Part shown: positions 21,521 to 46,800 of the stretch, one piece after another
Numbering within the stretch: position 1 is the stretch's first letter
Layout: each line of letters starts with the position of its first letter
NCBI GenBank assembly: GCA_032654565.1
Contig: JAULAX010000002.1
Location: 96,001 to 160,000, forward strand
From: Anaeromyxobacteraceae bacterium
GTDB taxonomy: Bacteria > Myxococcota > Myxococcia > Myxococcales > Anaeromyxobacteraceae
Direction: 5' to 3'
Length of the DNA stretch: 64,000 nt
Program-made: the position numbers and the translations under genes
The notes under the pieces: model-generated
Database searches by the model: none
Told to the model about the DNA's origin: nothing
Seen by the model: only the letters and a program-made list of their open reading frames with translations

Positions 21521-21897
21521 TCAGTCGAGCCGGGTCCGCTCCGCCCGCTGCGCCGCCTGGTGCTTCTTCCCGGCCAGGCGCCGCTCCTGCGAGCCGCGGG
21601 TCGGCCGGGTCGGCCGCCGCCGCTTCGGCTCCACGCCCAGGGCCGCCAGCCGCTCGCGCAGCCGCTTCAGCGCCTCGCCGCGGTTCTGCGCCTGGCTGCG
21701 CCGCTCGGTGGCGGTGACCAGCACCCCGGTGGGCCGGTGCAGCAGCCGCACCCCGCTCTCGGTCTTGTTGCGGTGCTGCCCGCCCGGCCCGCCCGCGGTG
21801 TAGAAGGTCTCCTCGCACTCGGCCTGCAGCGCCGCCTCGGGCAGCCGCACCGCCCGGCGCGCCGCCGCCCGCAGCGCCGCCGGGACCACCGGGGCGG

Positions 21898-44160: not shown

Positions 44161-44306
44161 GGGCGCCGGGGGGAGAGCGACGACCCTGGGTAAGTGAACT
44201 TTCCTTGTAGTGCCGCGGACTTAGCCCCAAAGAGTGACCTCCCCCCGGTTCTGCTGGTATCATGCGACGGGGTCTCCGCTCTGGAGACGCAGAAGAGGGG
44301 GAGCAC

Positions 44307-44834
44307 ATGATGCGCGCCAACATCCGCGTGCCGGCACCGAGGGGCGCGGCGGCTCACGCGGAGCTCGGTGGCCAGCTGCACTGTGACCGCCAGGCCGAGG
44401 AGATGCTCAAGGTCTTCTTCCCGCAGGCCTCGGACGGCAACGTCCTGCCGCCGGAGCTGAAGGGGCTCACCGACGGGGCCCAGGTCGGCCCGCCCGGAGT
44501 CCGCCGGACCCTGGTGATGGAGGGGCACGGGGAGCGGCTGCGCATCGAGGTGACGGCGGTGGGCAAGGGCAAGACCCAGCTCCACCTCTGGCGCGAGCCC
44601 ATCCCGGAGCTGACCCCGTCGAGCGGCGACGCCCCGGCGCCGCCCTCGGCCGACGGCCTCACCCAGCGCGAGCGCGAGGTGGCGCTGCTGGTCGCCGACG
44701 GCCTGCGCTCACGCGAGGTGGCCGAGCGGCTCGGCATCGCCTCGCAGACGGTGAAGAGCCACCTCAAGACCATCTTCGACAAGCTGGGCGTCCGCAACCG
44801 GGTCGAGCTGGCGCGGCGGCTGGTCCAGCACTAA
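44307..44834 (+). CDS. LuxR-type helix-turn-helix transcriptional regulator
   Basis: LTQREREVALLVADGLRSREVAERLGIASQTVKSHLKTIFDKLGV. Confidence 0.9.
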   Translation: MMRANIRVPAPRGAAAHAELGGQLHCDRQAEEMLKVFFPQASDGNVLPPELKGLTDGAQVGPPGVRRTLVMEGHGERLRIEVTAVGKGKTQLHLWREPIPELTPSSGDAPAPPSADGLTQREREVALLVADGLRSREVAERLGIASQTVKSHLKTIFDKLGVRNRVELARRLVQH

Positions 44835-44887
44835 GCCGGTTCGTTCGCCGCACGGCGGGTTGGAGTTTCGCTCGGCGGGTTCGCGCC

Positions 44888-45035
44888 GGGTCGGACCGTC
44901 GCTCCGGGGCTTCGCGGGGTTCGACGCGGGTCCGACCGTCGCTCCGGGCTCCGCGGGGTTCGACGCGGGGCCGACCGTCGCTCCGGGACTTCGCGGAGTT
45001 CGACGCGGGTCCGACCGTCGCTCCGGGGCTCCGCC
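44888..45035. repeat. Tandem array of about 3.7 copies of a 39-40-bp unit
   Basis: Approximate unit gggtccgaccgtcgctccggggcttcgcggggttcgacgc, starting at 44888, 44928, 44967 and 45007; no spacers. Confidence 0.9.
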
Positions 45036-45045
45036 GGGCCCGGGT

Positions 45046-45120
45046 CGCTCGTCGCGCCTGCGGCGCGCCTTCTCGCCAGCGGCGATTCCGCCTGGGCGAT
45101 CGGATGGGGGCTGCGAAGCT
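45046..45120. repeat. REP/MITE-like inverted arm (left), interrupted by the IS
   Basis: 45046-45079 is the exact reverse complement of 46686-46719; the inner ggctgcgaagct also matches. Confidence 0.85.
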
Positions 45121-45164
45121 TCCATGGAGAGGTCGCTCGCGTCAATCGGGCATCGTTTCTTCTC

Positions 45165-45335
45165 GGTAGTCGGATCCGCTGCCTTGCTTCCATTCGCACT
45201 CGATCGAGGCGGTGCACGCCTCCGGTGCATGCTGGGGTCCGCCCGTCAGGCGCTGCCATCTCGCGCACGAGGTTGAGCCGAGCGCTCAACTGCCTCAAGT
45301 TTCGCAGCGCAGTCGCCTGGACGGGACAGTCGGGT
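45165..45335 (-). ncRNA. Putative bridge RNA/seekRNA of the IS1111-type element (boundaries approximate)
   Basis: Two stem-internal-loop modules. Loop segments GCUGCGAAACU and GCGCGAG match the target flanks; AUGGAAG matches the donor junction. Confidence 0.75.
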
Positions 45336-45381
45336 CCGGTACCGAAGCCTGGCCCTCCTTTTCAGTTGGGGTGGAGTGAGG

Positions 45382-46437
45382 TCATGCGGCCACTTGGTTG
45401 GAGGCGGTGTAGCCGGTTGGAACGTAGGTCTCGCCGCTGCTCCAGAGCCGGTGCAGCAGCACCGCGAGCTTGCGTGCGACCGCGACGACGGCCCGCTTCT
45501 TGGCGTTCTTCTTGCCTCGGGCAGCCAGGACCAGGCCCCACCGCTTCAGGTCGGAGTCGGGTCCCCGGAAGAGGATGTACTGGGCGCACTGGACGAGGAG
45601 CCGGCGCACGTAGGGGTCGCCCTCCTTGCTGATGCGGCACTCCGGGTCGGAGTCGCCGGACTGGTGGCGGGCCGCCGTCAGTCCGAGGAACGCCCCCACG
45701 GCCCGGCTGTTCCGGAAGCGCCTCGGGTCCTCCAAGGTCAACACGAAGGCGAGGCTGGTGACGGGCCCCACCCCGTTGATCTGGCTGAGGCGCGTGGTCT
45801 CCGGGTAGGCCTCACCGGCCCGCTTCACCAGTCGCTCGTCGCACTCGTCGATCTGGATCGCGATGGCCTCCAGGCACTTCAAGACCGGCTCCAGCGCCGG
45901 CCTGAGGTAGGCGGGGACCAGCTCCGCCACGCGCTTGGGGAGGCTGGCCGGCTGGCAGGACGGGAACCGCAGGCCGAACGGCTTCACGATACCGCGCAGG
46001 TGGTTGACGAGCCTGGTTCGTTCCCTGACCAGCGTGTCTCGGGAACGGAGCAGGACCAGATCGGCCTGGGCGGCGTCGCTGCGGTGCCGGACCGGGCTGA
46101 GCAGGCTCGGGTCGAAACGCCCAAGCCGCGCCAGCAACTCGGCGTCGCGCTGGTCCGACTTCCGCCTGGACTTGGCGATGAGCTGGACGCGGCGCGGGTT
46201 GGCCACCACCACCTCATGGCCGCACCCCTCGACCACCCGCGAGAACCACCTCGAATGCGTCCCGACCTCGATGACCACCAGCGCGCGTGGGCACTTCGCG
46301 AACCACTCCCGAATCGCATTCGCTTCGGTCTTGACCTTCACCCACTCGATCGGCGTCCCACCCCCGTCCAGGACGCACAGATCGGACTTCCGGTCGCCGA
46401 TGTCACAGCCGATGAACATCTTGATAGGCTCCGCCAT
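45382..46437 (-). CDS. IS110-family DEDD recombinase/transposase
   Basis: IGCDIG, VIEVG and KSDQRDA (RuvC DEDD); INGVGP, HQSG (catalytic Ser), ISKEGD and AVARKL; RBS AAAGGAG. Confidence 0.95.
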   Translation of the reverse strand: MAEPIKMFIGCDIGDRKSDLCVLDGGGTPIEWVKVKTEANAIREWFAKCPRALVVIEVGTHSRWFSRVVEGCGHEVVVANPRRVQLIAKSRRKSDQRDAELLARLGRFDPSLLSPVRHRSDAAQADLVLLRSRDTLVRERTRLVNHLRGIVKPFGLRFPSCQPASLPKRVAELVPAYLRPALEPVLKCLEAIAIQIDECDERLVKRAGEAYPETTRLSQINGVGPVTSLAFVLTLEDPRRFRNSRAVGAFLGLTAARHQSGDSDPECRISKEGDPYVRRLLVQCAQYILFRGPDSDLKRWGLVLAARGKKNAKKRAVVAVARKLAVLLHRLWSSGETYVPTGYTASNQVAA

Positions 46438-46639
46438 GGTCGCTCTCCTTTGCACCCTCGAGTGCGCTACTGGCCCAGCCTAGCTGGACCACGGGAGAGC
46501 GACCTCTCCATCCCATCTCGCGCCCGGTCCGGCGGAGCCCCTGCGCTCGGTCAGGACGGCCCGTGCCCCAGCCGGCGTTCCGGCCCACGTCCCGGCCCAC
46601 GTCGCGGTCCGGAGGCGCCGGTGGGGCGGTTCACCCTGA

Positions 46640-46719
46640 GCGCGAGCTTCGCAGCCTCAAGCCGCCCGGGCTCGCGGACACCGCCCTGGCGAGAAGGCGC
46701 GCCGCAGGCGCGACGAGCG
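46640..46719. repeat. REP/MITE-like inverted arm (right) carrying an empty IS target
   Basis: gcgcgAGcttcgcagcc at 46640-46656, plus the 34-bp arm at 46686-46719. Confidence 0.85.
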
Positions 46720-46800
46720 CGAAGGGGGAGCCGCTCCCCGGCGCGACGGGTCGCCGGCTTGCACGCCCCGCGCGGCGCGCGGTACCGTCCCCGCCCCGAC

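Follow-up and report, generated by a model that had tools for sequence, protein, structure and literature searches.

The 64,000-nucleotide stretch of DNA analyzed here (the window) contains an insertion sequence of 1396 bp at positions 45121 to 46516, which reads on the minus strand and whose ends have homologues in related elements inserted elsewhere. It carries a transposase/recombinase gene (45382 to 46437, minus strand) encoding a protein of 351 amino acids from an ATG at 46437, with 261 nt of non-coding sequence past the stop codon compared to 79 nt ahead of the ATG. The open reading frame as listed is longer, extending from 45382 to 46455 with a GTG start at 46455 (357 amino acids). We regard the ATG as the likelier start, given an AAGGAG 8 nt upstream and matches to relatives that begin near residue 12; the 357-residue numbering is used below. 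The longer non-coding region contains two features on the minus strand, the target-binding hairpin of a predicted bridge RNA or seekRNA (45242 to 45326) and a putative donor-binding domain (45187 to 45238).

The transposase contains the domains PF01548 DEDD_Tnp_IS110 (E-value of 5.5e-21) and PF02371 Transposase_20 (E-value of 1.3e-21), and it scores 242.5 bits against the NCBIfam model NF033542, "IS110 family RNA-guided transposase," for which the cut-off is 140. When the protein was aligned with that of IS621, residues D18, E63, D101, and D104 matched D11, E60, D102, and D105 of IS621, and S266-G267 matched S241-G242; the N-terminal stretch of this alignment is weak (domain E-value of 24) with the DEDD motifs themselves clear, and the catalytic roles of the IS621 residues are those given in the excerpted text of PMC11208158. 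An earlier note on this DNA had called an IS110-family recombinase with the DEDD and Ser catalytic residues present, and both the family assignment and all five residues were borne out by these comparisons. The motif at the serine reads GLTAARHQSG, in which an A replaces the P of the published GL-P----S(t)G. The closest proteins found in any collection are 90, 87, 86, and 66% identical to the transposase, the one at about 90% being metagenomic, and plasmid-borne IS110-family transposases are at most 38% identical to the window protein and mostly labeled just "IS110 family."

Because the element is present as one copy in its own genome (4.57 Mb, 73% G+C), we took its ends from relatives. A search of 12 other genomes of the genus with this protein as the query (E ≤ 1e-40) found no further copies. 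In the related elements, sequence beginning ATGGGATGAG... starts directly after AG, and the other end is ...CTTGAC-N-CCGGCCTTCTCATGGA, then AG. The ends that the window element shares with these relatives are ATGGGATG... on the left and ...CATGGA, then AG, on the right. In the window, the left end reads AG and then ATGGGATGGAGAGGTCGCT from 46516 downward, and the right end reads AGCGACCTCTCCATGGA down to 45121 and then AG. As homologous ends are found in relatives at unrelated sites, the boundaries of the window element are fixed, and they agree with the donor junction that had been proposed previously, cccatCTtccat. The core dinucleotide, CT on the plus strand, lies once on each side of the inserted element (45119 to 45120 and 46517 to 46518), compared to a single CT in uninterrupted targets. 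Inside the ends are exact subterminal inverted repeats of 14 bp. The left repeat, ATGGAGAGGTCGCT (46498 to 46511, minus strand), is 5 nt inside the left end and is an exact inverted copy of the right repeat (45124 to 45137, plus strand), which is 3 nt inside the right end. The relatives have a different subterminal repeat (GAGAAGGCCGG / CCGGCCTTCTC) at equivalent places.

The target-binding hairpin consists of an outer stem (CCCGU, CAGGCG, and CUGC paired with GCAG, CGCCUG, and ACGGG), an internal loop with two guides, and an inner hairpin predicted by RNAfold (GAGG-CA-GUUGAGC / GCUCAAC-CUC; 45269 to 45296, minus strand). The 5' strand of the loop reads GCUGCGAAACU(U), and the 5' target guide within it, GCUGCGAAACU (45298 to 45308, minus strand), is placed within the loop as it is in relatives. 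This guide complements the flank of the element's top strand, AGCTTCGCAGC, and matches the plus-strand sequence GCTGCGAAGCT (45110 to 45120) at 10 of 11 letters; the mismatch is an A versus a G beside the core. The 3' target guide, GCGCGAG (45260 to 45266, minus strand), is identical over 7/7 letters to the left flank on the element's top strand, gcgcgAG, and is thus the exact reverse complement of CT plus CGCGC at 46517 to 46523 on the plus strand. Both guides include the CT core, and in the orientation of the element the guide that complements the top strand precedes the one that complements the bottom strand. Together the guides specify approximately 16 bp, GCTGCGAA(G/A)-CT-CGCGC. With loop positions and element ends fixed by homology and the family-wide core letters excluded, the probability of obtaining 8/9 plus 5/5 non-core guide matches by chance is about 1.3e-6 at this base composition.

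Most of this architecture had been described in the earlier note, and it held up on reanalysis: the two guide strings lie where they had been placed (45308 to 45298 and 45266 to 45260, minus strand), the 10/11 and 7/7 matches and the resulting recognition of about 16 bp were recovered with the core counted in both guides, RNAfold of 45242 to 45325 reproduced the outer and inner stems, and the guide RNA is located 3' of the transposase, within the 261-nt non-coding region. In the folding check suggested at the same time, the hairpin stood out and the region around it did not. The stretch from 45242 to 45325 has a predicted energy of -44.1 kcal/mol (z = -3.2), 1 of 200 shuffles being as stable, and a few guide letters pair with each other in its minimum-energy fold; the folding of the whole 276-nt region is unexceptional (z = -1.1, RNAfold). 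A covariance model, for which the window was among the training sequences, scored the hairpin at 46.3 bits as the sole hit in the genome at E ≤ 1, so no orphan guide RNAs were detected elsewhere in the whole genome at this threshold. A weak hit of the model at 21763 to 21840 (plus strand) scored 12.7 bits (E-value of 0.46 in the window search) and is probably a chance match. Between 44800 and 46800, no Rfam family matched at E ≤ 1.

We also noted that the RNA past the core AG of the 3' guide reads AU(GG) (45258 to 45259, minus strand), which are the first letters of the element's left end, ATGG. The RNA at this place resembles the finished left junction, GCGCGAG-ATGG, and could serve as a handshake-type guide like that of IS621. 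The ATGG left end is invariant in relatives, some of which have GU in their RNA at the AU position. Handshake-type pairing of the letter past AUGGAAG was rejected as unsupported: when 15 diverse elements were compared by eye, it agreed with the first letter of the flank in only 6.

The target lies within a genomic repeat. The left half of the target plus the core, GCTGCGAAG-CT, is at 45110 to 45120 and the core plus the right half, CT-CGCGC, at 46517 to 46523 (both plus strand). In one contig of metagenome run X4, a stretch resembling the left flank and ending ...GGGGCTGCGAAG is joined directly to position 46517 (CT CGCGC...), and in contigs of runs X8 and X9 the left flank up to 45120 is followed by CGCACCCC or CGCCCCC. 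Judged by these joins, the X8 and X9 contigs are uninterrupted copies of the repeat and place the break exactly at the core. An uninterrupted 16-bp target, GCTGCGAAGCTCGCGC, is present 120 bp from the element at 46640 to 46655 (minus strand), where it terminates an inverted copy of this repeat. In the consensus, an interspersed repeat of approximately 115 bp has this 16-mer as its 3' end and is laid out as ...CGCTCGCCGCGCCTGCGGCGCGCCCTCTCGCCAG, about 30 variable letters, and then GGGGCTGCGAAGCTCGCGCCCC; nhmmer returned 26 genomic hits for it, of which 25 are close to full length. One copy is interrupted by the element (45040 to 45120 with 46517 to 46535), and this copy and the inverted one at 46630 to 46725 (minus strand) flank it. 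The exact guide-defined 16-mer (the AAACT form) occurs twice in the genome, compared to 0.006 occurrences expected by composition, and both sites are unoccupied; 9 sites lie within one mismatch of it and 18 within two.

The repeat itself is G+C rich, with a conserved hairpin module (CGCGCC-TGC-GGCGCG) and, at its end, the target of the insertion sequence. Copies are arranged in a tandem array on contig C5 (C5:191500-192300), the copy in the window has no Rfam match, and a REP-like element, a small RNA, and a MITE are candidates for what the repeat is. In its consensus, the target is bracketed by GGGGC ... GCCCC (45110 to 45123 with 46519 to 46526), which could form a short stem and recalls the target stem-loop of ISPpu10, a reported second specificity determinant; the bracket is missing from some repeat copies. 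A tandem repeat of 40-bp units (44870 to 45038; 4.3 copies, 86% matches) adjoins the interrupted copy, and a short 12-bp repeat lies at 46576 to 46607. The open reading frame adjoining the element (44262 to 44834, plus strand; 190 amino acids) has a C-terminal helix-turn-helix stretch that resembles the LuxR/GerE type.

We assembled relatives from three sources: representative genomes (80 loci, nearly all in Acidobacteriota MAGs, with proteins 50 to 56% identical), a family-level genome search (9 usable loci, 52 to 57% protein identity), and a metagenome scan (18 further loci, all at most 62% identical over most of the protein). These elements (L003 to L114) are 1.36 to 1.65 kb long and have the AG/CT core, homologous ends, the same RNA framework, and the same donor domain as the window element, with different guides, targets, and subterminal repeat sequences. 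The framework, GACUGC...RUGGCAGC, was found 3' of the gene in 76 of 81 sequences (the 80 loci plus the window) and was not found in L017, L055, L060, L062, and L081; it is common to more than 90 related elements, and the loop letters it encloses differ among them.

The correspondence between guides and insertion site that had been claimed for the window extends to these relatives, since those with other loops occupy other sites that match their own loops. In the first set of loci, 5' guides, scored over the nine letters up to and including the core, matched their own flanks at 7.69/9 letters on average, compared to 6.67 ± 0.11 when permuted (n = 68; maximum of 7.09 in 2000 permutations), and 3' guides matched at 5.63/7, compared to 4.99 ± 0.08 (n = 64). 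This set omits three loci with a loop that is one letter shorter and the loci without a parsed end. Guide position 7 covaries with the flank in the same set (C-C in 30 loci, G-G in 26, and 12 disagreements). A wider parse, which held 89 of 112 loci and 92 distinct records, gave 7.55/9 for the 5' guide versus 5.84 ± 0.11 permuted (n = 89) and 5.67/7 for the 3' guide versus 4.33 ± 0.10 (n = 75). Since many loci come from the same genomes or lineages, the permutation tests overstate independence; the direction of the guide-flank result in the relatives is, on these comparisons, not in doubt.

Most telling are 12 elements with unrelated guides, drawn from the host's own family and from metagenomes. 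Their 3' guides match the left flank at 7/7 letters in 6 of the 10 for which a left flank was available (GAGCGAG, AGCGCAG, AGCGAAG, AGCGUAG, CGGCGAG, and UCGCAAG), with the others at 6, 6, 5, and 4, and their 5' guides match at 9/9 in three, 8/9 in four, 7/9 in three, 5/9 in one, and 3/9 in one, compared to means of 4.5/9 (5') and 3.6/7 (3') for non-self pairings. Poor matches included those of the 5' guides of L088 (3/9) and L085 (5/9) and the 3' guide of L104 (4/7). Four loci with variant closing motifs (L097, L103, L105, and L106) were not scored automatically; reading by eye gave 9/9 plus 6/7 for L103, 9/9 plus 7/7 for L106, and 8/8 for L105. The guides of the window are similarly specific to their own site: the 5' guide matches the flanks of other elements at 2 to 6 of 9 letters in 88/88 cases, compared to 8/9 (10/11) for its own flank, and the 3' guide reaches the 7/7 of its own flank in 1 of 74 other flanks.

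Because free folding of truncated loops was judged uninformative (it recovered the outer CUGC/GCAG pairing in 54 of 70 and often paired guide letters together), we tested the outer stem on an alignment of 42 sequences. Its ten pairs are 96.7% paired, five of the ten are altered on both sides in some sequences (for example, U-A to C-G in 10 sequences), and these values were reached by 0 of 500 shuffles. The lower five-pair extension of the stem is confined to the high-G+C subset and is 37.6% paired overall. An inner hairpin of at least 5 bp is present in all 70 distinct loops of relatives, with varying sequence and length. Two sub-branches stand out among the relatives. L006, L041, and L082 are longer (approximately 1650 bp), with a 5' guide strand one letter shorter and a purine-rich insertion of 40 to 70 nt between the donor domain and the right end. 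In L097 and L099 to L102, the upstream flanks look by eye like the 3' halves of tRNA genes (…GGACTCGAACC…), so tRNA genes may be the targets of this sub-branch.

Past the target hairpin, a second RNA domain is conserved in a 32-sequence alignment, in which the relatives keep ...CCCA-NNNN-GCAC-hairpin-GUGC-G-R-AUGGAAG. In the window this putative donor-binding domain comprises CCCA (45236 to 45233), a hairpin enclosed by GCAC (45228 to 45225) and GUGC (45199 to 45196), and AUGGAAG (45193 to 45187). AUGGAAG corresponds letter for letter to the right end, ATGGA, followed by the core AG. It accompanies an ATGGA end in 92 of 93 parsed records, and the remaining one, L104, has AUAGAAG with the end ATAGA. 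The CCCA and the TGGG in the left end are complementary, and a left end of ATGAGATG (TGAG) goes with CUCA in L074 and L080, which are from one genome, and in L107 (by eye); counter-examples are L057, which keeps CCCA, and L044, which has CCUA. The letters between CCCA and the stem match the core poorly. These likenesses point to the domain as the donor-binding part of the RNA, on weaker evidence than that for the target loop. Near the right end, TTGAC (45141 to 45145, minus strand) is invariant in 32 of 32 aligned sequences and is possibly the -35 box of a promoter completed across a circle junction (TTGACG, 17 nt, GAAGAT). A promoter scan found no promoter-like site in the linear element.

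The public sequencing runs listed as containing this stretch include DNA runs and no RNA run. Metagenome runs X2 and X4, from different studies, each contain one contig that aligns to 45115 to 46518 with 82 differences (94% identity). Beyond the aligned stretch these contigs carry unlike sequence, and the limits of the alignment coincide with the homology-derived ends. The differences listed for X2 and X4, which appear complete up to 45856, include two in the 3' guide (45262 C>T and 45265 G>T, plus strand) that change it to GAGCAAG, and the X4 flank past CT reads TGCTC..., a 7/7 fit to the changed guide. Two further listed differences, 45302 T>C and 45299 G>T, change the 5' strand to GCUGCGGAAAUU. 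The left flank in X4, ...GCTGCGGAAGCT, matches this strand over nine consecutive letters including the new G, and at 10/12 overall. The 5' guide fits only in a register shifted by one, with loss of the core C. Since a 94%-identical element occupies another site in two other studies, the lineage has moved recently.

We conclude that positions 45121 to 46516 very probably constitute an intact IS110-family element, of IS1111 type by its anatomy, with a DEDD/Ser recombinase and a predicted two-domain 3' bridge RNA (seekRNA). The anatomy, the guide-flank matches, the covariation of these matches in relatives, and the intact catalytic residues are observed, and from them we infer production of the RNA, its binding by the protein, and continuing activity of the element. 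By analogy with its family, the element would excise as a circle in which the joined ends read ATGGA-AG-ATGGG, and the circle may form the junction promoter from TTGAC (45145 to 45141) and GAAGAT; the 3' part of the resulting transcript would yield the guide RNA. In the first RNA domain (45326 to 45242), the two guides are predicted to pair on either side of the CT/AG core, the 5' guide with one DNA strand and the 3' guide with the opposite one. The second domain (45238 to 45187) would read the circle junction, as its CCCA and AUGGAAG match the left and right ends of the element, respectively. The RNA-protein complex would then bring circle and target together for exchange at the core, by analogy with ISEc11 and IS621: a tetrameric recombinase-RNA complex would pair its guides around the CT in a copy of the repeat, with strand exchange through a phospho-intermediate at Ser266.

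An alternative that we consider unlikely, though it deserves some weight, is that the element is a fossil, formerly RNA-guided, in which the matches record the last insertion and either the RNA or the enzyme is now dead in this host. In favor of this reading, the element is single-copy, with no copy detected by this protein query in the 12 genomes of the same genus; its guides carry one mismatch to the target, and the perfect-match sites stand unoccupied. Against it, the reading frame is open with all five catalytic residues in place, neither the ends nor the subterminal repeats nor the two RNA domains are damaged, and the 94%-identical element at a different site in two other studies indicates recent movement of the lineage.

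Very improbable is the proposal that the target-like letters are a captured piece of the genomic repeat, providing DNA homology for host recombination and not RNA guides. The target does belong to the repeat hit 26 times in the genome, of which two inverted copies flank the element, yet no other part of the repeat lies inside the element, and the halves of the target are split there by a 31-nt stretch (45297 to 45267) that holds the inner hairpin. One half is inverted and both overlap the core, which is the published arrangement of bridge RNA/seekRNA guides, and the guides are split in the same way in relatives from other phyla, whose targets are unrelated. Least credible of all is that the hairpin is merely a transcription terminator or a chance G+C-rich fold with coincidental flank matches. 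In favor of this reading, stable hairpins are common in a 73% G+C genome, and the whole 3' region folds no better than shuffles (z = -1.1) and lacks an Rfam match; against it, the non-core matches fall at homology-fixed positions with a chance probability of about 1.3e-6, the framework recurs in more than 70 relatives whose other loop letters match their own flanks, and no T run follows the stem, the sole terminator-like site found being on the other strand.

With this locus, the catalogue of RNA-guided recombinases gains an orthologue that is well delimited, apparently intact, and from an environmental bacterium of high G+C content, together with natural guide-target pairs that include one recent redirection; the known mechanism is unchanged. 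Both the bridge RNA/seekRNA and its target could be read from raw sequence alone. Opinion could go either way on whether this element and its relatives in Anaeromyxobacteraceae-like genomes, Acidobacteriota, and sediment and soil metagenomes form an uncharacterized, compact branch of IS1111-type bridge recombinases. Such a branch would be one in which both RNA loops are readable from sequence, with a target guide of 11 plus 7 nt covering approximately 16 bp, and which appears to have been re-aimed many times in nature, including one case in which two elements that differ by only 6% in DNA show a joint change of 3' guide and flank. If the element is active, the branch would supply a new orthologue for which natural examples of tolerated guide changes and register shifts already exist, and the location of the target within a repeat may be a sign of a structural gate such as that reported for ISPpu10.

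Among known systems, IS621 (Durrant et al. 2024, PMC11208160; Hiraizumi et al. 2024, PMC11208158) has, in the excerpts of these papers, the same DEDD and Ser residues, the same CT core, and two loops, for the target and for the joined ends, each of which pairs with both strands around the core; the target hairpin and the putative donor-binding domain would be their counterparts here. The IS110-family features found in the window element are the DEDD and Transposase_20 domains, the catalytic residues, and a 2-nt core on both sides. In contrast, IS621 has its RNA 5' of the gene, whereas that of the window element is 3', and its guide order is reversed relative to the gene; its protein matches the window transposase weakly (E-value of 1.5e-9), mostly in the C-terminal domain. 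Thousands of RNA-target pairs in the family have already been analyzed, according to the excerpted text of PMC11208160. The relatives described here (L003 to L114, from Acidobacteriota, Anaeromyxobacteraceae-like genomes, and metagenomes) are closer, at 50 to 57% protein identity to the window transposase.

We found no departure of the element from the published IS1111 bridge RNA/seekRNA model. The IS1111-group features that we found are the 14-bp subterminal repeats, the longer non-coding region downstream of the gene, and the guide order. The group's non-coding region and subterminal repeats are described in excerpts of PMC11187229 and PMC11208160, the latter giving repeat lengths of 7 to 17 bp, and the rule for IS1111 seekRNAs in the same excerpts is that the guide complementary to the top strand comes first, the reverse of IS110/IS621. 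The IS1111 elements with a 3' seekRNA, ISEc11, ISPa11, and ISKpn4, have, in the text available from Siddiquee et al. 2024 (PMC11187229), a long non-coding region past the gene, subterminal inverted repeats, a transposase of approximately 350 amino acids, and a hairpin of approximately 82 nt with the same guide order and guides that overlap at the insertion point, all as in the window element. Repeats are the usual targets in the family, as excerpts on ISPa11, ISPpu9, and ISPpu10 state (PMC11187229; PMC12288879; 10.64898/2026.03.19.712850); ISPa11 targets REP elements (PMC11187229, in part), and the window element likewise lies in a genomic repeat. From the same part of PMC11187229, ISEc11 and ISXne4 form a natural redirection pair like the window element and its X2/X4 relative, and the RNAs bound to the ISEc11 transposase are 82 and 154 nt long, compared to the 84-nt hairpin and the approximately 150 nt that span both domains in the window. 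For ISEc11, sequence inspection revealed only a junction promoter, and the linear element in the window is similarly without a promoter-like site. The window element differs from the IS1111 elements with a seekRNA in its host, its target, and the A for P in its Ser motif, and its donor letters flank a hairpin past the target hairpin, whereas the donor-binding letters of IS1111 elements are published as often in a multi-loop.
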